From a virus: 11,086 nt of DNA. How positions within the stretch are numbered: the first letter of the stretch is position 1; each line of letters begins with the position of its first letter. The stretch lies in UHGV virus genome UHGV-0145753; one strand, written 5' to 3'. Shown here one piece after another: positions 10 through 9,598 of this stretch. Position numbers and translations under genes: made by a program. The notes below the pieces were generated by a model. It ran no database searches, had not been told where the DNA came from, and saw nothing but the letters and a program-made list of their open reading frames with translations.

Positions 10-43
10 GTCTCGTGGGCTCGGAGATGTGTATAAGAGACAG
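10..43 (+). other. Illumina Nextera read-2 transposase adapter (sequencing artefact, not biological)
   Basis: Positions 10-43 read GTCTCGTGGGCTCGGAGATGTGTATAAGAGACAG, which matches from memory the 34-nt Nextera read-2 adapter ending in the 19-bp Tn5 mosaic end. Positions 1-9 (tgcagcgta) are probably index or adapter-dimer derived; unverified. Confidence 0.88.
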
Positions 44-3000
44 CCTGTAGAACAGCCCGATTCGGCTCAGTCAATGGCGCGCTGCCGCATGCTGCTGGCG
101 CTCGGGGAGGGGGAGTTTGCTGGTGGCCTGGATGCGACCCGGATATTCCTGGACGGTACGCCGTTGGGAAACCCCGACGGAACGATGAATTTTGAAAATG
201 TGTCATGGGATTTCCGGCCTGGCACACAGACCCAGACACCAATACCGGGATTCCCTGCAGTCGAGAATGAAACTACGGTTGGGGTATCGCTGACAAAGGC
301 CACACCATGGACCCGCGCACTGAGTAACACCCAGATTGACGCGGTGCTGGTTCGTATTGGCATCCCTGGGTTACAGCAGCAGGAAAACGATGGGGATATT
401 GTCGGCACTACGGTTCAGTACCATATTGATCTGGCGGTGGACGGTGGCGCTTACTCGACAGTCATGACGAAAACCGTCACAGAGAAGCTCAGCTCGCTCT
501 ATGAACTAACCCACCGTATTAATCTTCCCAAAGCCAGCACTGGCTGGCAAATTCGAGTGGTGCGTGACACCGATGACAGCACCAGCCAGATGCTGCAGAA
601 CAAAACGCAGGTGCAAGCGATTACTGAAGTGATCGATGCTCGCCTGCGATATCCACACACAGCGCTGCTGTACGTGTCCTTTAACGCAAAGTCATTCAAC
701 AACATCCCTAAGATTTCCTGCATGCCGAAGGGGCGCATCATCCGAATCCCTTCGAACTATGATCCAATAGCGCGGACTTATAGCGGAACATGGGACGGGA
801 CGTTTAAATGGGGCTGGACGAATAACCCGGCGTGGATTTGGTTCGATGTTCTGACTGAGCCGCGCTTCGGCCTTGGGCGCCGCGTGACGCCAGAAATGCT
901 CGATAAGTGGGAGCTCTATCGCATCGCCCAGCGCTGCGACCAGAAGGTACCCGACGGGAAAGGCGGAAGCGGTACCGAGCCACGCTTCATGTTTGACGTT
1001 TACATCCAGTCCCAGGCTGATGCCTGGCAGGTGATTAAAGATATTGCCGCGGGCTTCAACGGAATGACTTTCTGGGGCAACAACATGTTCAATGTTGTCT
1101 CTGACATGCCGGCGGACACTACGAAGTTGCAGATCCTCACTCGCGCATCAGTGGTGGGTAAGCCGGTGTACTCGAGTGGCAGTGAGAAAAACCGATTCTC
1201 CAGCGCGCTGATTAACTTCAGCGATCCGGATAACCACTACCAGGACCGCACCACGGCAGTGATGTTTCCGGAACTGGTAAGGCAGTTCAAGTTTAAGCAG
1301 ACACAAATCACTGCGATCGGTTGTACGCGTGAGAGCGAGGCGCAGCGGCGTGGCGGGTGGGCGGGGTATTCCAACTCCCTTGACCGCATTATCACGCTTC
1401 AGACTGGACTTGATGGCTTTGTATTTGTGCCGGGCACCGTATTTGCGTTTGCAGATGAACGCCTGTCAGGGCGCGTTTACGGCGGGCGTATCACCGGGTA
1501 TAACGCTGGTCTTAAGGCCGTGACCATTGACCGGGGCACCAGTGCGGTGGCGGGCGATACGCTGATGATTCGCACCCAGGGCGGTACCGTTGAAAGCCGG
1601 GTGATACAGGCCGTAAATGGCACGCAGCTGATCCTGTCCACGCCGTTCACGGCGGCGCCATTACCTAATGCCGTATTCGTCATTGATGCTGGTCAGCTGC
1701 GCCTGCAGTATTTCCGGGTAACGAACCTAAAATTTGATGATGAGGAAAACACCTTCACCATTACCGGTGCGGAGTATAACGCGTCGAAATACGACGCCGT
1801 TGATAACAACGCTCGCCTCGATACTCCTCCGATAAGCCTGATTCCGACCGGGCTAGTTAACCAGCCGACCAACATCGTGGTATCGAGCTATGATGCGGTT
1901 CGCCAGGGGCAACGCGTGGCCACGCTAACCGCCTCGTGGGATGCGCCAATTGATAAAGACGGCAAACTGCAGTCGGACGTAATAGCGTACCGGGCACAGT
2001 GGAAGCGCGGAAATAACGAATGGGTAAACGTGCCTGAAACCGGGTTACGAAATATCGAAGTGCCTGGCATTTTCGAGGGCGATTACCTTGTGCGCGTCCG
2101 TGCGATTAACTCTGGGGGAGCGTCCAGCCTTTGGGCCACGTCTGCGTTGACCCATCTTACCGGCCGCACCGGTGAAGTGCCCAAACCTGTCGGACTAACA
2201 GCAACAGAGGATGTTGTATTTGGGATCAACATTACATGGGGTTTCCCCGCAGATACCGCCGACACCCTGAGCACGGAACTGCAATACAGCGCTTCAGTCG
2301 ATGGGGCAAATCCAATGCTTTTGGCGTCGGTGCCGTATCCTCAGAAACTCTATCAGCAGATGGGGCTGAAGGCAGGGCAGGAATTCTGGTACCGGGCACG
2401 GCTGGTTGACCGCATCGGGAATCAGAGCGACTGGACAGACTGGGTGCGCGGGCAGGCCAGCATCGATGTTTCCGATATCACCGATGCAATCCTGGAGGAC
2501 ATGAAAGGCTCCGATACGTTCAAAGATCTGATCGAGAACGCGGTGGACAGCAACGAAAAAATTGCTGGCATGGCTAACGATATCAAACAGGCTAACGACG
2601 AACTGGAGCAGCAAGCGAAAGATATCGCCAAAAATGCCCAGGACGTAGGGAAGGTTCAGACCAGCGTTAATGAGCTTTCCAGCACGGTCGGGAATGTTTC
2701 GTCTTCACTCAGTCAGCTTGAGCAGACCGTTGCGACGGCTGATACCGCCCTGGGCCAGCGAATCGACAACATCAGCGTTTCTATGGACGGCATGACGGGC
2801 GGGGTGAAGAACTCTGCAATTGCGATAATCCAGGCAAACCTCGCTCAGGTGGCCACGCGTAAAACCCTTTCTGCATCGGTCGCCGGCAACAGCGCGAATC
2901 TGGACCGTATTGATGAGGTGATTGTCAACGACAGGGAGGCAACGGCGCGCTCGCTGCTGAGCCTGCAGACGGACGTTAACGGCAACAAGGCATCCATCAA

Positions 3001-3571
3001 CAGCCTGAACCAGACGTTCTCCGATTACCAGCAGGCTATGGCCACGCAGGTAAACAGCATCACGGCGACGGTGAACGGGCATACCTCAGCCATCACAACC
3101 AACGCTCAGGCTATAGCGAACGTAAACGGCGACCTCAGCGCGATGTACAACATCAAAGTTGGTGTCTCCAGCAACGGGCAGTATTACGCCGCGGGGATGG
3201 GTATCGGCGTGGAGAATACGCCATCAGGCATGCAGTCACAGGTAATCTTCCTGGCAGACCGTTTCGCCGTGACTACTATGGTCGGCGGGACTGTAACACT
3301 GCCGTTCGTTATCCAGAATGGCCAGGCCATTATCAGGGATACAGTCATTGGCGACGGGACCATAAGCAATGCAAAAATTGGCAATTACATCCAGTCGAAC
3401 AATTATGTTGCCGGCTCTGTTGGCTGGAAACTGGATAAGTCCGGGACGTTTGAGAACTACGGTTCGACAGCTGGGGAGGGAGCCATGAAGCAGACCAACC
3501 AGACAATCAGCGTCAAGGATGGCAACAACGTTCTGAGAGTGCAGGTTGGCCGATTAACGGGGGTGTTCTGA
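44..3571 (+). CDS. J: Phage host specificity / tail tip protein J (lambda gpJ family), 5'-truncated at the contig edge
   Basis: Long ORF whose translation aligns by eye with lambda gpJ from near its N-terminus (e.g. RIPSNYDPIARTYSGTWDGTF versus lambda LQVPSNYNPQTRQYSGIWDGTF). The ATG at 29 lies inside the adapter, so genuine coding sequence starts at 44 in the same frame and a few N-terminal codons are missing. Stop TGA at 3569-3571. Confidence 0.9.
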   Translation, partial: PVEQPDSAQSMARCRMLLALGEGEFAGGLDATRIFLDGTPLGNPDGTMNFENVSWDFRPGTQTQTPIPGFPAVENETTVGVSLTKATPWTRALSNTQIDAVLVRIGIPGLQQQENDGDIVGTTVQYHIDLAVDGGAYSTVMTKTVTEKLSSLYELTHRINLPKASTGWQIRVVRDTDDSTSQMLQNKTQVQAITEVIDARLRYPHTALLYVSFNAKSFNNIPKISCMPKGRIIRIPSNYDPIARTYSGTWDGTFKWGWTNNPAWIWFDVLTEPRFGLGRRVTPEMLDKWELYRIAQRCDQKVPDGKGGSGTEPRFMFDVYIQSQADAWQVIKDIAAGFNGMTFWGNNMFNVVSDMPADTTKLQILTRASVVGKPVYSSGSEKNRFSSALINFSDPDNHYQDRTTAVMFPELVRQFKFKQTQITAIGCTRESEAQRRGGWAGYSNSLDRIITLQTGLDGFVFVPGTVFAFADERLSGRVYGGRITGYNAGLKAVTIDRGTSAVAGDTLMIRTQGGTVESRVIQAVNGTQLILSTPFTAAPLPNAVFVIDAGQLRLQYFRVTNLKFDDEENTFTITGAEYNASKYDAVDNNARLDTPPISLIPTGLVNQPTNIVVSSYDAVRQGQRVATLTASWDAPIDKDGKLQSDVIAYRAQWKRGNNEWVNVPETGLRNIEVPGIFEGDYLVRVRAINSGGASSLWATSALTHLTGRTGEVPKPVGLTATEDVVFGINITWGFPADTADTLSTELQYSASVDGANPMLLASVPYPQKLYQQMGLKAGQEFWYRARLVDRIGNQSDWTDWVRGQASIDVSDITDAILEDMKGSDTFKDLIENAVDSNEKIAGMANDIKQANDELEQQAKDIAKNAQDVGKVQTSVNELSSTVGNVSSSLSQLEQTVATADTALGQRIDNISVSMDGMTGGVKNSAIAIIQANLAQVATRKTLSASVAGNSANLDRIDEVIVNDREATARSLLSLQTDVNGNKASINSLNQTFSDYQQAMATQVNSITATVNGHTSAITTNAQAIANVNGDLSAMYNIKVGVSSNGQYYAAGMGIGVENTPSGMQSQVIFLADRFAVTTMVGGTVTLPFVIQNGQAIIRDTVIGDGTISNAKIGNYIQSNNYVAGSVGWKLDKSGTFENYGSTAGEGAMKQTNQTISVKDGNNVLRVQVGRLTGVF

Positions 3572-3572
3572 T

Positions 3573-3875
3573 ATGGCTTATGGAATACAGACCTGGGATG
3601 CTTCGGGAAACCCCAACAACTACGGAATCAAGCCCGTTTCCGTTGTTGGACGTATACAACTTGCCGCCGGACAAAACTCCGGCAGCTGGTCTTTCACTGT
3701 ACCCTCAGGAATGAAGGTCGGTTTTGCGCTCTCACTTGATGAAGGAGGTAACAGCGTAGGGAGGAGCATTGTCGCGTCAGGGAACACAATAACCGTAACC
3801 GCAGCCTCTTCTGTGGGCCTGGGTAATTACCCGGCCTCTAAATGTGAGGTGGTCGTTTTCATGGAGAAAGCATAA
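3573..3875 (+). CDS. Hypothetical phage protein (tail-region accessory), 100 aa
   Basis: ORF starts 2 nt after the J stop with a G-rich Shine-Dalgarno-like stretch upstream; its stop overlaps the next start (TAATG). Shares a WDASG motif with the next ORF. Confidence 0.6.
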   Translation: MAYGIQTWDASGNPNNYGIKPVSVVGRIQLAAGQNSGSWSFTVPSGMKVGFALSLDEGGNSVGRSIVASGNTITVTAASSVGLGNYPASKCEVVVFMEKA

Positions 3876-4549
3876 TGGCCGAATTTGGCGCGATGATATT
3901 AATGGATAACGGGAATCCCTTTGTAACGCCACAATCAACGCCTTTCTGTCTTTACGGGAAGTATACCTTCAATTCATCCGCGAATGGCAGTTCTCAGCAG
4001 GTTGCTCAAAATATCGCTTTAAACGCTGATTACCCAGTGATGGTTTTTATCAAAACCACCAATACAGCACAGCCCACTCCGGTTATGTCTTACAGGAACG
4101 GCGGTAATGTGTATGTTGCTGGTGTTAATCCCTACAACCAAAGTTTCACTTTAACGGCGTACGTTTTTGCCATATTCCCGCAGATATTACCGAAATGGGG
4201 TTTGGCAATATGGGATGCGAGCGGAAAGCTTGTGTTAACTAATGAGTCCCGTGTGCTATCAGACCTGCAGACGGTTGGCACGCCTGGTGCAAACGGCGGG
4301 ATAAATATTGACCAGACGCTGAGCGGGTCATGGGCCGTTGCACCTGCTCAGTTGGGTCAGACCATCATTGTGAATAATTCAACCCGGCCTCCGACTATCT
4401 ACACGATAAATGCTTATTCTTCATGCAGGTTTGACGGGGCCAATACGAGGATAAACGCAGGGGGGACCTCCACTGGGGCAGGTTCACCTGGAGGGGGAAC
4501 GAATACTGGCATTTCATTAACCGCCATAAATACAGCGGCCTATGATTGA
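3875..4549 (+). CDS. Hypothetical phage protein, 224 aa, apparently two copies of the domain seen in the preceding ORF plus a Gly/Thr/Asn-rich C-terminus
   Basis: Start is translationally coupled to the upstream stop (TAATG). Contains AIWDASGKLVL mid-protein and a second weaker DNGNP-type motif near the N-terminus, resembling QTWDASGNP in the 100-aa ORF. Confidence 0.62.
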   Translation: MAEFGAMILMDNGNPFVTPQSTPFCLYGKYTFNSSANGSSQQVAQNIALNADYPVMVFIKTTNTAQPTPVMSYRNGGNVYVAGVNPYNQSFTLTAYVFAIFPQILPKWGLAIWDASGKLVLTNESRVLSDLQTVGTPGANGGINIDQTLSGSWAVAPAQLGQTIIVNNSTRPPTIYTINAYSSCRFDGANTRINAGGTSTGAGSPGGGTNTGISLTAINTAAYD

Positions 4550-4571: not shown

Positions 4572-4660
4572 AACATAATATTGATCTATCCAATCAATTA
4601 TACCCACCAGAATTGTATTGTTATCGTCTAAGATACTGAATTCCTCTGGATACTATCAAA

Positions 4661-4894
4661 ATGAGAAAACTGATTATCTGCATGGCAGGCGCTGTCATGC
4701 TTACAGGATGCGCTGGCGTAATTGAGAAACAGGAACCAGTTTGCAGCGGCACTGCAATCGTTGGCGGTCAGGAAACTACGGTTCAGATTTACGGTGTGCG
4801 TAAACAAAACAACCAGACGCAGTACCGGGCTGGATATCCTTTCAGCTGGCGCTGGGTAAGTGCGAATACATTTACCGAAACAACCTGCAAATAA
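4661..4894 (+). CDS. Small secreted lipoprotein (77 aa); position and size consistent with a Cor-like superinfection-exclusion lipoprotein
   Basis: N-terminus MRKLIICMAGAVMLTGCAG has a hydrophobic signal sequence followed by an L-T-G-C lipobox. The gene sits between J and the side tail fibre with its own AT-rich upstream region and a downstream terminator (moron-like). The Cor assignment rests on context only. Confidence 0.65.
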   Translation: MRKLIICMAGAVMLTGCAGVIEKQEPVCSGTAIVGGQETTVQIYGVRKQNNQTQYRAGYPFSWRWVSANTFTETTCK

Positions 4895-4915
4895 CCCACT
4901 ACGCTTAAACATAAA

Positions 4916-4938
4916 CCTCGCTCCGGCGGGGTTTTTTT
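4916..4938 (+). terminator. Putative rho-independent terminator after the lipoprotein gene
   Basis: GC-rich imperfect hairpin (cctcgctccggcgggg) immediately followed by a run of seven T (4932-4938). Confidence 0.5.
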
Positions 4939-4954: not shown

Positions 4955-5896
4955 ATGCTTTATAACACCGGCACCATCGCCATTAATGGAAATACCGCCA
5001 CCGGGACGGGTACAAACTGGACGGCACCGGCCAGCCAGGTCCGCGCTGGCCAGACGATTATCGTGATGTCTAACCCGGTGCAGCTGTTTCAGATTTCATC
5101 CGTGAACAGCGCCACGTCAATGACGGTAACGCCTGCTGCATCACCGGCGCTGAGCGGCCAGAAGTACGGCATTCTGGTATCAGACAATATCTCGGTTGAT
5201 GGGCTGGCGCTGGCCATGTCGCAGCTTATCAAGGAGTATGACGAGAATATTGGTGCGTGGGAGACGTTCGCCACAACCTCAGCCAACCAGAACATTACCG
5301 TTACGATCAATGGCACCAGTTTATCAATCCCGGCTCTTGGGAAATTACTGCAGAAGGGGAGCAACGGAGCTTTGCCGGTTAATCAAGGTGGTACCGGCGC
5401 AACGAATGCCGCAGACGCTCGCACAAACCTTGGTTTGGGAGAAGGTTCGGTGTTACCCGTTGGTGTGCCTGTTCCGTGGCCTGCAGCCACTCCGCCAACA
5501 GGCTGGCTGAAATGCAATGGTGCGGCTTTTTCTGCTGAAGAATACCCAGAACTGGCAAAGGCTTACCCGACAAATAAATTGCCTGATTTACGTGGTGAGT
5601 TTATGCGTGGCTGGGATGATGGAAGAGGCGTTGATAGTGGCAGGGGGATTCTCACTGCGCAATCTCATGGTATGCCGTCTATTTCAGGAACGTTTAATGG
5701 TCTTTTTGCTGTTAAACAAACAAATGGTTTAGGTGGTGTTTCTGTAGCAAAAAGTACAAATACTGAAACTTTATCTACTTCATCTGGATCAGGTTCCGTG
5801 TTTGATTACACGTTTAATGTCAGCGGTTCGACTCCGGTATCACCAGAACTTCGTCCGCGTAATATTGCATTTAACTATATCGTGAGGGCCGCATAA
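4955..5896 (+). CDS. Side tail fiber protein: constant N-terminal part (to about 5430) fused to the currently expressed variable C-terminal part carrying a phage tail-collar-like domain
   Basis: GGAG Shine-Dalgarno 7 nt upstream of ATG 4955 (the ORF-track start at 4940 is a TTG). The N-terminus MLYNTGTIAINGNTATGTGTNW is fibre-like, and the C-terminal motifs (PTGWLKCNGAAFSAEEYPELAKAY, LPDLRGEFMRGWDDGRG) are typical of tail-collar domains. The left inversion site lies in-frame at 5418-5443. Confidence 0.85.
   Translation: MLYNTGTIAINGNTATGTGTNWTAPASQVRAGQTIIVMSNPVQLFQISSVNSATSMTVTPAASPALSGQKYGILVSDNISVDGLALAMSQLIKEYDENIGAWETFATTSANQNITVTINGTSLSIPALGKLLQKGSNGALPVNQGGTGATNAADARTNLGLGEGSVLPVGVPVPWPAATPPTGWLKCNGAAFSAEEYPELAKAYPTNKLPDLRGEFMRGWDDGRGVDSGRGILTAQSHGMPSISGTFNGLFAVKQTNGLGGVSVAKSTNTETLSTSSGSGSVFDYTFNVSGSTPVSPELRPRNIAFNYIVRAA
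5418..5443. repeat. Left recombination site of the invertible segment (gix/hix/pix-like), crossover dinucleotide TT at 5430-5431
   Basis: CTCGCACAAACC-TT-GGTTTGGGAGAA. Positions 5430-5444 are the exact reverse complement of 7254-7268. The half-site resembles the Hin/Gin-type consensus (TTCTC..AAACC) as I recall it. It is embedded in-frame in the tail-fibre gene (codons N-L-G-L-G-E). Confidence 0.7.
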
Positions 5897-6498
5897 TGAA
5901 TAATGCAGAATTAAATAGTGAATTGATTGCTACTGCGGCAGGGAATATTACCGTTTATAACTATGATTGTGAAACACGAGAATATATTTCCACATCAACT
6001 GAATATCTTGCTGTGGGTGTCGGTATCCCGGCATGTTCCTGTCTGGATACACCAGGTATACATAAGGCGGGTTATGCAATATGCCGCTCTGTGGATTTAA
6101 ATTCATGGGAATATGTGCCAGACCATCGAGGTGAAATTGTCTATAGCACCGAAACGGGAGATACCAAAGAAATCACAGTGCCAGGCGACTATCCCGAAAA
6201 TACAACCACTATCGCCCCGTTAACGCCATACGATAAATGGGATGGTGAGAAATGGGTGACCGATATTGAGGCACAGCATAGCGCCGCAGTAGACGCGGCA
6301 GAAGCGCATCGCCAATCGCGGATTGATGCTGCAATGGCTTCCATCAGTCTGATTCAGCTGAAATTGCAGGCCGGACGTAAACTGACGCAGGCAGAAACAA
6401 CCCGGCTTAACGCTGTGCTGGATTACATTGACGCGGTGGTGGCAACAGATACCAGCACCGCGCCGGATGTCATCTGGCCTGAACTACCGGAGGCGTAG
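5896..6498 (+). CDS. tfa: Tail fiber assembly protein (Tfa chaperone) for the currently expressed fibre variant
   Basis: Start overlaps the fibre stop (TAATG) with a GAGGG Shine-Dalgarno upstream. C-terminal motif LDYIDAVVATDTSTAPDVIWPELP is typical of the conserved Tfa C-terminus. Confidence 0.8.
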   Translation: MNNAELNSELIATAAGNITVYNYDCETREYISTSTEYLAVGVGIPACSCLDTPGIHKAGYAICRSVDLNSWEYVPDHRGEIVYSTETGDTKEITVPGDYPENTTTIAPLTPYDKWDGEKWVTDIEAQHSAAVDAAEAHRQSRIDAAMASISLIQLKLQAGRKLTQAETTRLNAVLDYIDAVVATDTSTAPDVIWPELPEA

Positions 6499-6913
6499 GC
6501 CATTCAATATCTGGAGCACTGGAAATATCGACCATTTCCAGTGCATCCAGATAATCCAGCCACAAATTATATTGTGCCAGTTCCTCACCTTTCAGACGAC
6601 CGATAGCTGCTTTACCAGGCCATTGCTTACCGTTCATGTATTCGTTGGCATGGTCAATTCTCGACTTTTTCTCTGAGTCAGCCGCAGCAAGTTGTTCTTT
6701 ATGCGTAGGTGACGGAAGATCTACCCAGCAAGGCAACCCATCATCACCAATGCCACGCATTTTACCCTCAGGAGCGTTTCCCATGAAAACCAGTGCATCT
6801 TCAGCATCTATATTGATGCCGTCTGACGGCCATGTGCCAGCAGTTAAATAATCATATTTCAGTGCCACAAGATAAAAAGCATTTTCCGTCGGGCTGAATA
6901 CATAGTCGACCAT
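6470..6913 (-). CDS. tfa: Alternative tail fiber assembly protein (Tfa-alt), in the silent orientation
   Basis: Conserved Tfa-type C-terminus (LWLDYLDALEMVDISSAPDIEWPTPP). Preferred start is the ATG at 6913, which overlaps the Sv-alt stop in a TAATG junction mirroring the + strand arrangement and has a GGGAG upstream; the ORF-track start at 6931 would add 6 aa. Its 3' end overlaps the + strand tfa convergently by 29 bp. Confidence 0.72.
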   Translation of the reverse strand: MVDYVFSPTENAFYLVALKYDYLTAGTWPSDGINIDAEDALVFMGNAPEGKMRGIGDDGLPCWVDLPSPTHKEQLAAADSEKKSRIDHANEYMNGKQWPGKAAIGRLKGEELAQYNLWLDYLDALEMVDISSAPDIEWPTPPVVQAR

Positions 6914-7268
6914 TAATATCCCACTCCCCATACTGCCACTGTTGAATTAGATTTCGTGTATGCGCAAGCGGCTTTGAATTTGACCCGGTCAACAATCGCT
7001 GCGCTAACAAAAGGGGCTCCATTAGTCGCGTAGATCACAGAATTGACCAGCGAAGGATTGATGGAAAGGCAAGCATTAGGAAAGGCAACCGGCCATGAGC
7101 CATCAACAACGACCATATTACCGTCGGTAGATTGCGGCACTGATAGCGTCTTCCACTGAAGCAATGCTGTTCGTTGTACTCCACCAATTAATACTGGAAT
7201 AGTGATGTTACCTGCACTGCTGGCTAATGCTGTCGCAGCAGGCATTTTCGCTGCTTCTCCCAAACCAA
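6913..7268 (-). CDS. Alternative tail-fibre variable C-terminal cassette (Sv-alt), promoterless and startless; it would be fused in-frame to the constant part after inversion
   Basis: The minus-strand reading frame is open from the right inversion site to a stop at 6913-6915. Across the site it encodes V-G-L-G-E, matching L-G-L-G-E at the left site in the same codon phase, so recombination at the central dinucleotide keeps the frame. The ORF-track start at 7287 is a TTG beyond the crossover. Confidence 0.62.
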
Positions 7269-7280
7269 CCTTTTTTATAA
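7255..7280. repeat. Right recombination site of the invertible segment (gix/hix/pix-like), crossover dinucleotide AA at 7267-7268
   Basis: TTCTCCCAAACC-AA-CCTTTTTTATAA. Its left half and centre are the exact reverse complement of the left site's right half and centre. It lies about 60 bp upstream of the invertase start. Confidence 0.7.
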
Positions 7281-7339
7281 CCATCAAAAATCTGGTGATG
7301 CTTCGCCGTTTCTCCTGTTTTCATAACAGGAGAAATCCC

Positions 7340-7888
7340 ATGATTTACGGTTATGCCCGAGTATCAACAAACCACCAGGACACTGAATTGCAACTAACGG
7401 CGCTCAAGTCAGCGGGTTGTGAGAAAATTTTTGAAGAGCATGCCAGCGGGAGGAAATCGAATCGGCCGGTTCTAAAACGGCTGATCGCCACTATGCAGCC
7501 GGGGGATGAACTGGTGGTCTGGAAGCTGGACAGGATAGGCCGCAACGTTCTGCATGCGCTGTTGATGTTCCAGCAGTTACAGGAAAAGGGTATCAACTTC
7601 CGCAGTATTACCGATGGCGTGGATCTCAAAACAGCCAGCGGCCGCTATAACTTTCGTAACATCCTTTCCGCAGCACAATATGAATCTGATCTTAATAGCG
7701 AACGTACCTTAGCAGGGCTGGCCGTAGCCAGGGCAAAAGGGCGAGTTGGTGGTCGCAGGCCTAAGTTCACGGATGAGCAATGGCGGGAAATGGGGGAGCG
7801 GATGGCAACCGGTGAATCACGACAAAGCGTATCAAAAACGTATGGAGTAGGGCTCTCAACTCTGTATAAAAAGTTTCCAGCTAGCTGA
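7340..7888 (+). CDS. Site-specific DNA invertase, serine recombinase of the Hin/Gin/Cin/Pin family
   Basis: AGGAGA Shine-Dalgarno 7 nt upstream of ATG 7340. N-terminus MIYGYARVSTNHQDTELQ has the catalytic Ser at position 9 (Gin: MLIGYVRVSTNDQNTDLQ) and the C-terminal helix-turn-helix ends GLSTLYKKFPAS (Gin: ALSTLYKKHPAK). About 182 aa; the upstream in-frame extension in the ORF track (from 7202) overlaps the inversion site and is not used. Confidence 0.93.
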   Translation: MIYGYARVSTNHQDTELQLTALKSAGCEKIFEEHASGRKSNRPVLKRLIATMQPGDELVVWKLDRIGRNVLHALLMFQQLQEKGINFRSITDGVDLKTASGRYNFRNILSAAQYESDLNSERTLAGLAVARAKGRVGGRRPKFTDEQWREMGERMATGESRQSVSKTYGVGLSTLYKKFPAS

Positions 7889-7909
7889 TAACGGGAAAGA
7901 AACAGAGAA

Positions 7910-7950: not shown

Positions 7951-8113
7951 TGATTGGTGGTTGAATTGTCCGTAACTTTTTGATTTAAGTGCAAATTTCT
8001 AATAAATTAGAACACTTTCTTAAATTGTCATTTGGCATATTACGAACAATTCCGCGTAAAAACGTTCTGTTACGCTAAACCCTTATCCAGCAGGCTTTCA
8101 AGGATGTAAACCA

Positions 8114-8211: not shown

Positions 8212-9405
8212 ATGATCACCGACACAAAGCTCAGGAAGGCGCTCGGCAAGAAAAGAGATGATATCGAGATTATTTCTGATTCGCACGGGCTCAACGCCAG
8301 AATCAGCCAGGCCGGAAAAATATCATTTTTCTATCGGTATCGCTGGGCCGGTAAAGCGGTAAAACTCAATGTTGGTGATTATCCTGCAATGAGTATCACC
8401 CAGGCAAGAGAGCGTCGCCAACAATTCAGAAACTGGTTAACTGAGGGACTGGATCCGCGAGAGCAGGTGAAGCTGGATAAGCAGACCCGACAGGAAGCGA
8501 TGTCCGTTGCCGAAGCGTTCAATTACTGGATTGAAAGGCACTGTATCGCTAACGGGCTAGTTAAAGTCGATTACTATCGCCAGGTGTTTGAGAAACATAT
8601 CGCCGAACCGATGAAGAATGTCAAAGTCGATAACACAGCGAAAATGCACTGGATCAACGTCTTCGATTCTATAGAAAGCAGGGTGATGGCTCATTACATG
8701 CTTTCGCTGTGCAAACGGGCGTTTAGGTTCTGCGTTAACAGAAGTGTGATCGCCTCAAACCCACTCGAGGGATTACTGCCATCTGATGTCGGGCAAAAGC
8801 CTAAAAAGAGAACTCGCAGGATGGACGATGACGATCTGCGCAAAATCTATCAGTGGTTGAAAAGCCATATGTCGATAGAGTCCGTTTTCCTGGTGAAATT
8901 TATTATGCTTACCGGATGCCGTACGGCTGAGATTCGACTTAGTGAGAGATCATGGTTTCGATTGGATGATAATGAGTGGGTCGTGCCTGCGGGCAGTTAT
9001 AAAACTCGGGTACATATTAGAAGGGGGCTCTCAGACGCCGCCGTTAACTTGGTCAGAAATCACCTCAAGAAAATAAACACCAATCACCTGGTGACTTCAC
9101 AACGTAAAATTGATGGCGGGATCAAAGATTCGCCCGTTCATTCACCTGTGGCATCCAATTACGCCCGTTCTATTTGGAATGGAACAGGTATGGCAGAGTG
9201 GTCGCTTCATGATATGAGGCGGACGATAGCCACAAATCTCTCTGAGTTAGGTTGCCCGCCGCACGTAATTGAAAAGCTACTTGGTCATCAGATGGTCGGT
9301 GTAATGGCTCACTACAATCTGCACGACTACATCGATGACCAAAAACACTGGCTCCACGTTTGGCAGAGCCATCTTGAAAGTATCATTGGTGAGCCATTCA
9401 GTTAA
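8212..9405 (+). CDS. int: Tyrosine site-specific integrase, P4-type (N-terminal arm-binding domain plus C-terminal catalytic domain)
   Basis: N-terminus [17 protein letters not shown]...[23 protein letters not shown]...[18 protein letters not shown] fits the P4-integrase arm-binding pattern. The C-terminus has the catalytic signature ([19 protein letters not shown]...AHY). Start chosen at ATG 8212; the ORF track begins at an upstream GTG (8155) that would put the repeats inside the coding sequence. No strong Shine-Dalgarno at either. Confidence 0.9.
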
Positions 9406-9598
9406 TTGGCTGTTTCACACCTTCCCACTCTTTGACTGACTCCGACTTCCAGCGGTTTGGGTTACCAGGAAAATCAGGAGCAGGGAACGGCTTCGCAAAA
9501 CCCCGCGGCATAGTTTCTGTGCTTTGCCATGACCAAAGGGTTTTACGTGAGATTTTGTATCGACTGGTCAGGTCTGACGTCAGCAAAATATCATCCAT
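9398..9598 (-). CDS. AlpA/Xis-like small helix-turn-helix protein (putative excisionase or recombination directionality factor, or transcriptional regulator)
   Basis: 66 aa with GGAG Shine-Dalgarno 9 nt upstream. The pattern ...[11 protein letters not shown]...FPAP..........W....VKEW resembles AlpA (..RATIYDWL..ATFPKK......W.EAEIDEWL). It is convergent with int and overlaps its 3' end by 8 bp. Confidence 0.55.

Follow-up and report, generated by a model that had tools for sequence, protein, structure and literature searches.

The window analysed here, an 11,086-bp stretch of viral DNA (UHGV virus genome UHGV-0145753) that is the whole of ENA contig ERZ652116 NODE_17 from a metagenome assembly, probably carries a Pin-type invertible side-tail-fibre segment (5431-7267) of a phi80-like temperate siphophage. 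The reading draws on the anatomy of the segment and its reading frames, on crossover sites whose inner halves and cores are identical to those of e14, and on the occurrence of both orientations among relatives, all of which can be observed directly. A fibre gene with a constant 5' part (Sc) runs into one of two inverted crossover sites, and between these sites lie an expressed tip (Sv) with its chaperone (Tfa), a silent tip (Sv') with a chaperone of its own (Tfa') on the opposite strand, and, just past the second site, a serine invertase gene of the pinL type.

We propose that dimers of the serine invertase would bind both 26-bp sites, cut at the central TT/AA dinucleotide of each, and flip the segment between them by strand exchange through subunit rotation. 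In the orientation seen, late transcription would yield Sc fused to a collar-type tip, plus Tfa; after inversion, the unchanged promoter and constant part would instead be fused in frame to a gp53-like tip, followed by Tfa'. A population of lysogens would then release two kinds of virion differing in their side-fibre tip. PinL itself presumably catalyses the reaction in this phage, at a rate that, like the identity of the receptors bound, we can only infer.

Crossover sites, fibre tips and chaperones

A first-pass annotation of the same sequence had described a constant 5' fibre part and two 26-bp sites (5418-5443 and 7255-7280) sharing a perfectly inverted 15-bp core, and we find all of these at those positions. 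A repeat finder returned inverted arms at 5425-5444 and 7254-7273 (20 nt, 90%), and the 15-mer TTGGTTTGGGAGAAG occurs exactly twice in the window, at 5430-5444 on the plus strand and at 7254-7268 on the minus strand. The number of such matches expected by chance is 0.01, and two copies arose in 0/200 shuffles. Both sites have the 12-2-12 layout of Din-type sites—two inverted 26-bp elements with imperfect 12-bp half-sites, which match those of pix, cix, and gix, and a 2-bp core whose dinucleotides agree in inverted orientation (TT/AA). Because the window holds only two of these sites, only two states are available to it. When the segment between them (about 1837 bp, or ~1.84 kb) is inverted in silico, both sites are left unchanged and a 276-aa fibre is produced in frame and without a stop, to set beside the 313-aa fibre of the observed orientation; each tip is thus read in frame from the constant part in one of the two orientations, and the shared codon phase already read from the two sites (LGLGE versus VGLGE) is borne out.

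At the nucleotide level, the constant part shares 96-98% identity with the 5' parts of fibre genes in E. coli prophages (H5, locus L012, and locus L028) and in a viral contig (L020), and 89-93% with the corresponding parts in phi80 and mEp237. Homology does not extend past the crossover site: it breaks off at ~5440 in mEp237 and in the E. coli and viral loci, and at 5401 in phi80. The expressed tip, for its part, is 99% identical in nucleotide sequence to cassettes of P2-like and e14-like prophages. As had been claimed, the two tips are unrelated (BLASTP E = 2.8) and only the expressed one is collar-like, with a Pfam Collar domain found in that tip alone; the minus-strand open frame of the silent tip (6913-7287) gives a borderline match to Gp53-like_C, at 24.5 bits versus a cut-off of 24.9. 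This second tip is expressed as a fusion in two related prophages (L009 and L010).

Behind each tip stands its own Caudo_TAP protein, the two being encoded on opposite strands and convergently, just as the first-pass annotation had them. Their 3' ends overlap by 29 bp (6470-6498), and the similarity between Tfa and Tfa' is confined to the C-terminal 80 aa, at 35% identity; the homology of these C-termini accounts for a further repeat in the window, I3 (6417-6439 / 6538-6560). A TAATG stop/start overlap is present at both tip-chaperone junctions (5894-5898 and the reverse complement of 6911-6915), so the mirrored arrangement reported earlier can be seen in the junction sequences themselves. The start of Tfa', in contrast, had been placed at 6931 and needs to be moved: ATG 6913 is most likely, giving 147 aa, in keeping with the 444-bp coding sequence that RefSeq annotates in relatives.

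The silent cassette had been called startless. It is indeed an inverted alternative tip, but it is not strictly without starts, as TTG 7287 and ATG 7284 lie in frame, both lacking a Shine-Dalgarno sequence, and a third candidate, ATG 7245, has GGGAG 11 nt upstream, supplied by the inner half of the crossover site (GGTTTGGGAGAA; 7243-7268, minus strand). Gene callers annotate open reading frames (ORFs) of 110-129 aa on this tip. Given the GGGAG before ATG 7245, the silent tip could be translated alone, as a 110-aa protein, if the minus strand were transcribed; no promoter for the silent strand is evident. A free-standing product of this size may be compared with the anti-T2 effect reported for StfE2 of e14.

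Orientation of the segment among relatives

Many of 5426 complete E. coli genomes contain the inner segment at ~99% identity, with homology that starts and ends at both crossover sites; hundreds of E. coli prophages show this break exactly there. The cassette pair is thus not unique to this phage but a common possession of E. coli prophages. In the same genomes Sc is joined to many other tips, and the breakpoint always falls at the crossover site. Fusions of Sc to Sv or to Sv' are absent from these complete genomes, where all matches stop at the crossover site, and no record among them or among 50,697 phage records covers at least 80% of the full 3-kb module or of the whole window.

The segment is found in both orientations at 99% identity. 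Two P2-like prophages (L007 and L008) express the collar tip, and a prophage of the same P2-like type (L010) and an e14-like one (L009) have the gp53-like tip in the expressed position, leaving the collar tip silent next to the invertase. The invertase genes next to the segment in these four prophages are annotated as frameshifted pseudogenes. That both orientations are nonetheless represented suggests either past activity of these genes or inversion in trans.

Complete modules beside the exact PinL protein, in prophages at yciI, likewise occur in both states (L029, L030, and L035 versus L034 and L037). Comparison of L029 with L034 is particularly direct: the flanks are 99.97% and 99.1% identical, the collar-plus-Tfa cassette is inverted at 96.6% identity, and the alignment breakpoints overlap within the 15-bp core. 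Among the complete E. coli genomes, 57 contain at full length the right junction predicted for an inverted window, the best match reaching 97.7% identity. The isolated phages Omnitron and SKA5 likewise carry complete modules, in both of which the collar-type tip is the silent one, and the collar cassette occupies the silent position in the viral loci L014 and L024. With sites near-identical to e14 pix, cassettes homologous to those of e14, homology that breaks at the sites, and both orientations in relatives, the segment falls in the Mu G / P1 C / e14 P class, to which the first-pass annotation had assigned it.

A different kind of rearrangement separates the near-identical phi80-like prophages of H5 and VREC0761 (L012 and L013, 5585-7901), which have a constant part like that of the window and an invertase 84-86% identical to PinL. 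The order A-B in one becomes B-A' in the other, a difference explained by two inversions, one after the other, among three sites; the half-sites have been swapped precisely at the central TC/GA. This rearrangement shows that shuffling among more than two sites is also possible with such a constant part and an invertase of this clade. What the two prophages carry is the module in a multi-inversion form of the Min/shufflon kind, which has fibre tips of the Peptidase_S74 type in place of Tfa chaperones.

Searches with junction 28-mers gave 0 matches in a species-representative genome collection, a single 1.5-kb contig among metagenome contigs, which diverges just past the site, and 11 loci among viral contigs, none of them from this phage. 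An orientation difference was also sought between two independent GenBank records of mEpX1, and these proved collinear.

The PinL invertase and the control of inversion

The gene we call pinL begins 60 bp past the right crossover site. An adjacent Gin/Hin-family invertase had been recognised there, and the domain content of the product (Resolvase and HTH_7) agrees, as does its best solved relative, Gin (3UJ3; full length, E = 1.4e-56), with resolvases far behind. The catalytic residues R8, S10, D65, R66, R69, E122, and R123 (Hin numbering) are conserved, the active-site serine corresponding to S9 of PinL, and so are the GRRPK minor-groove motif and the recognition helix STLYKKFPA. PinL is nevertheless not one of the classical group: its identity is 55% to PinE, 52% to Gin, 52% to Cin, and 46% to Hin, whereas those four share 65-82% with one another, and PinL does not cluster with them. 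(The Hin sequence used for identity and numbering fits every residue number in PMC3798978.) Among sequenced phages, the PinL clade comprises phi80, mEp237, HK225, Omnitron (92%), mEpX1 (86%), and SKA5 (79%), with the classical group at no more than 56%.

Within this clade, the invertase of mEp237 is 100% identical to PinL and that of HK225 is 99.5% identical, differing by one residue; phi80 PinL is 100% identical over its shorter annotated coding sequence, which ends 10 codons earlier. At the level of the gene, mEp237 and HK225 each differ by one base and phi80 by 20 bases. With mEp237 and HK225 differing by a single nucleotide, the ratio of nonsynonymous to synonymous substitution rates (dN/dS) is uninformative for pinL.

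Inversion in classical Din systems depends on an enhancer to which Fis binds, and which lies within the 5' end of the gene for the invertase. The annotation of P1 places this enhancer at cin +19 to +90, and pinE, gin, and cin each have two 15-mers of the Fis consensus, one at +23 and the other 48 bp further on at +71, which agree at 5/6 and 6/6 key positions. The first-pass annotation held that all parts of an inversion module were present in the window; this is true of the fibre, sites, chaperones, and invertase, but the recombinational enhancer was overlooked, and both the Fis pair and the Fis-contact residues are absent. No Fis pair 48 bp apart occurs in the first 200 nt of pinL. The only pair with that spacing in 5400-7900 lies in the fibre gene (5533/5581), and with a mean of 4 in shuffles it is uninformative. 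As the Fis consensus is degenerate, an enhancer could lie elsewhere. The invertases of mEpX1, H5, and VREC0761 combine a classical-like 5' end, including the Fis pair, with a PinL-type C-terminal half, making the clade a mosaic one, and the Omnitron invertase has the PinL 5' end yet retains R154 and L155.

In Hin, the residues contacting Fis or the enhancer are Q151, R154, and L155, together with basic residues at 47, 48, and 51 (PMC3798978), and a change of H107 to Tyr makes Hin Fis-independent. Measured against these systems, several features of the invertase weigh against a working switch in this phage, as do some of the orientation data. The canonical Fis-site pair is missing from pinL, which reads TATCAACAAACCACC at +23 and CAGCGGGTTGTGAGA at +71 (scores of 4/6 and 4/6), the latter having lost both G-7 and C+7. 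In place of the Fis-contact residues PinL has E151, E154, R155, and A51, K47 and R48 being kept; Hin H107 is replaced by Arg, M115 by Tyr, and F104/F105 by Tyr/Asn. Inversion has not been seen directly in this phage, both retrieved contigs (the window and a 23-kb Logan contig, two of the four on record that encode the exact 313-aa fibre) being in one orientation, and the predicted 276-aa inverted fibre was absent from an exact-sequence look-up of 15 billion proteins. Moreover, the orientation polymorphism among E. coli prophages could be due to PinE, PinQ, or P2-type invertases, because action in trans is established for e14, whose segment is flipped by PinQ of Qin (PMC12529663).

Taken to their limit, these points would describe a module that is intact but frozen or decaying—PinL being inactive, or too weak without an enhancer, and the segment flipping only by the action of another invertase in trans (PinE, PinQ, or one of the P2, Mu, or P1 type) or never, so that in effect only the collar-type fibre is made. 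The same or near-identical PinL does stand beside degraded segments in phi80, mEp237, and HK225. Even so, we consider such a state unlikely for the window, where the catalytic and DNA-binding residues of PinL are all intact, both cassettes and both chaperones are intact ORFs, and the two sites keep matching central dinucleotides and the experimentally validated core. Nor is the protein a rarity confined to remnants: exact PinL occurs in 8172 blocks of a contig collection, on at least 1000 contigs, and the complete modules beside it are found in both states.

Judging from its sequence, then, PinL presumably is under some other control, has weak activity, or needs help. A tentative extension of the first of these options, which we regard as possible though doubtful, is that members of the PinL clade are natural Din-like invertases that work without the Fis/enhancer invertasome. 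It is suggested by the loss of the Fis pair, the contact residues, K51, and the "lock" residues of the dimer interface, namely Hin H107, M115, F104, and F105, set against the presence of modules beside exact PinL in both orientations. Control might then be exerted by a hairpin that buries the ribosome-binding site of pinL. This 12-bp stem-loop is conserved in phi80 (where it is annotated as IR3), mEp237, and HK225, and its outermost pair shows a compensatory change, from T-A to C-G, in phi80 and mEp237. The hairpin may be a translational brake that limits synthesis of the invertase; alternatively, it could be a protein-binding palindrome.

The host phage and its kinship with known inversion systems

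On the evidence of its sequence, the phage is a phi80-like lambdoid temperate siphophage of E. coli. Regions flanking the segment are 89-99% identical in nucleotide sequence to phi80, mEp237, HK225, and mEpX1 and share their gene order (J, gp22, gp23, cor, stf, pinL, attP, int, xis), and the phi80 attP core is present (Table 1). The C-terminus of J is of the phi80 type, at 89% nucleotide identity. The terminator between cor and the fibre gene has a counterpart annotated as such in phi80, mEp237, and HK225, and late, antiterminated transcription must read through it if the fibre is to be made. In E. coli, homology to the right ends of prophages stops at 8028, where yciI DNA starts; since the attP core sits between pinL and int, the window represents the unintegrated phage, in virion or circular configuration. 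Beyond xis lie a DUF4060 gene and a RecT-like gene, and a tRNA scan of the window found none. Public contig annotations also call a 94-aa ORF antisense to cor (4628-4912, minus strand), which has no family match and fully overlaps cor, and is thus probably spurious.

Table 1. Positions of the fibre segment, its sites, the invertase gene, and neighbouring features in the window
Feature	Position	Strand	Evidence or remark
Lambda-J-like host-specificity protein	29-3571
Two small conserved proteins	3573-3875 and 3875-4549
Cor exclusion lipoprotein	4661-4894		NCBIfam equivalog match
Rho-independent terminator between cor and the fibre gene	4913-4934	+	9-pair stem followed by a T run (terminator scan)
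Side-tail-fibre gene, 313 aa	4955-5896	+	Pfam Collar at aa 170-217, E = 2.7e-15
Constant 5' part Sc, about 159 aa, outside the invertible segment	4955-5431	+	Matches to PHROG tail fibre families
Left crossover site (pixL-like), CTCGCACAAACC TT GGTTTGGGAGAA	5418-5443	+	Central dinucleotide 5430-5431
Expressed tip Sv, tail-collar type	5432-5896	+	Makes up the 313-aa fibre together with Sc
Tfa, 200-aa assembly chaperone for Sv	5896-6498	+	Caudo_TAP, E = 7e-31
Tfa', 147-aa chaperone for the silent tip	6470-6913	-	Caudo_TAP, E = 2.7e-29
Silent tip Sv', about 117 aa, gp53-like	6913-7266	-	In frame with Sc once inverted
Right crossover site (pixR-like), TTCTCCCAAACC AA CCTTTTTTATAA	7255-7280	+	Central dinucleotide 7267-7268
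12-bp stem-loop, 3' arm holding the pinL Shine-Dalgarno sequence (AGGAGA)	7308-7336	+	RNA fold -25.5 kcal/mol, z = -4.2
pinL-type serine DNA invertase, 182 aa	7340-7888	+	Resolvase and HTH_7
phi80 attP core, exact match to the phi80 annotation	8012-8028	+	End of the tail-fibre/invertase arm
int	8155/8212-9405		Integrase, after attP
xis	9398-9598	-	Excisionase-sized ORF

Phage phi80 adsorbs through its tail tip to FhuA, and Cor blocks FhuA-dependent phages. Side fibres of the lambda type quicken and broaden adsorption and are not essential to it. With a phi80-type J tip and cor both present, the switch likely concerns an accessory receptor, so that the host-range switch proposed in the first-pass annotation probably amounts to a change of that receptor and not of the whole host range. 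Most likely the side fibres determine which surface receptor is contacted first and reversibly, and would affect the efficiency and breadth of adsorption, not the essential receptor.

Inversion could also serve mainly the lysogen, and not the virion, if the fibre-tip protein blocked adsorption of other phages. This has been reported for the homologous e14 segment, inversion of which blocks T2 adsorption (StfE2 chimera; PMC12529663), and the cassettes of the window are e14 homologues whose silent tip has possible starts of its own, ATG 7245 among them. We give this explanation little credence here: what the window holds is no cryptic remnant but the full arm of an unintegrated phage, in which J, attP, int, and xis are all intact, its fibre and chaperone genes lie in the late operon downstream of J, the silent strand has no evident promoter, and the tips are just 45-60% identical to those of e14. 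As for a chance inverted repeat, or an artefact of metagenome assembly joining unrelated fibre fragments, both are refuted by the 15-mer statistics, by an independent 23-kb Logan contig (SRR8090949) that is 99.98% identical over 11 kb and has the same orientation, and by matching architecture in finished genomes and isolated phages.

The closest parallel to the invertible fibre segment is e14, and the sequences indicate that the segment is a homologue of the e14 P segment. In e14, pixL reads CTCTCGAAAACC TT GGTTTGGGAGAA and pixR reads TTCTCCCAAACC AA CGTTTATGAAAA; the inner half and core of each are identical to those of the corresponding site in the window, left and right respectively, and the outer halves differ. 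Inversion of e14 by PinE and PinQ has been shown experimentally at TTGGTTTGGGAGAAGG / CCTTCTCCCAAACCAA in a 2025 study (PMC12529663), and the window matches the repeat TTGGTTTGGGAGAAGG at 16/16 positions on the left (5430-5445) and 15/16 on the right. Phase variation of e14 has also been detected by whole-genome sequencing and polymerase chain reaction (PMC4272514). A separate homology search of each variable cassette, which had been proposed as a check, paired the cassettes of the two elements at the amino acid level: Tfa with TfaE (88%), Sv with StfE (60%), Tfa' with TfaP (49%), and Sv' with the C-terminus of StfP (45%). In its variable middle the collar tip departs even from StfE.

The two elements also share their order (stfP-tfaP / tfaE-stfE / pinE in e14): the constant fibre part is followed by one tip with its chaperone, these by the second chaperone and tip in convergent orientation, and these by the invertase. 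They share as well the 29-bp 3' overlap of the chaperone genes (tfaP/tfaE) and a similar segment size (1797 bp in e14). They differ in the invertase, PinE being only 55% identical to PinL and carrying the Fis-site pair and Fis-contact residues that PinL is without, and in the backbone, which in e14 is of a baseplate type, whereas the constant part and backbone of the window are those of a phi80-like siphovirus. The MG1655 reference has e14 in the opposite state, the StfE-like tip being the one expressed in the window.

The laboratory phage phi80 and its relatives mEp237 and HK225 agree with the window in backbone, synteny, right crossover site, and the hairpin before pinL, but their segments are degraded or replaced where the window has a complete two-cassette segment. 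In phi80 (L001, 4258-5326), only the right site is kept, along with pseudogene fragments and a dinI moron; in mEp237 (L002, 4412-5556), the central dinucleotides are mismatched (TC versus AA); and in HK225 (L003, 3367-4123), again only the right site is kept. The pseudogene fragments among these remnants include one of tail-collar type, and the left site is either missing or mismatched. In all three phages the ORF of the invertase stays open, being 10 codons shorter in the phi80 annotation. The window shows the intact state of a module that survives in these phages as an orphan pinL with remnants, and this explains why they carry an invertase.

Complete modules of the PinL clade are also known from other phages and from prophages. 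In the yciI prophages with exact PinL, the right site is identical to that of the window (L029-L037). The right site is also identical in Citrobacter phage Omnitron, which has a 92% identical invertase; in Escherichia phage SKA5, with a 79% identical one, its outer half differs (CCTTTCAAATA). These modules share a left site near-identical to that of the window, and collar-type and gp53-like tips, each with a Tfa chaperone, and both states are represented among them. They differ in that most have another constant part and tail module (an e14/Mu-like baseplate), and their cassettes are 84-92%, not 99%, identical to those of the window; none joins the Sc of the window with its cassettes. Isolated phages already offer complete PinL-clade modules, and, as far as sequence comparison tells, E. 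coli commonly carries both this cassette pair and this invertase; only their joining to the Sc of the window is unrecorded. The distribution illustrates how entire segments are exchanged among P2-like, e14-like, and phi80-like phages, the breakpoints falling precisely at the sites of crossover.

The G segment of Mu (Gin) and the C segment of P1 (Cin) follow the same logic, with a constant S, alternative Sv/Sv' tips with U/U' chaperones, and an adjacent serine invertase, and their 26-bp sites share a consensus with those of the window. Their segments are larger (3-4.2 kb), their cassettes have no detectable similarity to those described here, and Gin and Cin keep the enhancer and the Fis-contact residues, both of which PinL is without. 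The long fibres of Mu and P1, which are myoviruses, are essential for adsorption. Min of p15B, a multiple-inversion system of fibre shuffling, is akin to the three-site prophages of H5 and VREC0761, the window having two sites only. Textbooks have covered invertible fibre segments since Mu, P1, and e14, and lambdoid phages whose side fibres are invertible, LLS for example, had been noted earlier (PMC12315714). As a tail-fibre switch, the segment thus adds little to the known kind, although a lambdoid chassis with two chaperone-matched side-fibre tips could serve retargeting. Its sole unusual feature among these systems, judged by sequence, is an invertase without the usual marks of Fis-enhancer control, which makes PinL a cheaply testable candidate for a naturally Fis-independent member of the family that includes Gin, Cin, Hin, and PinE.

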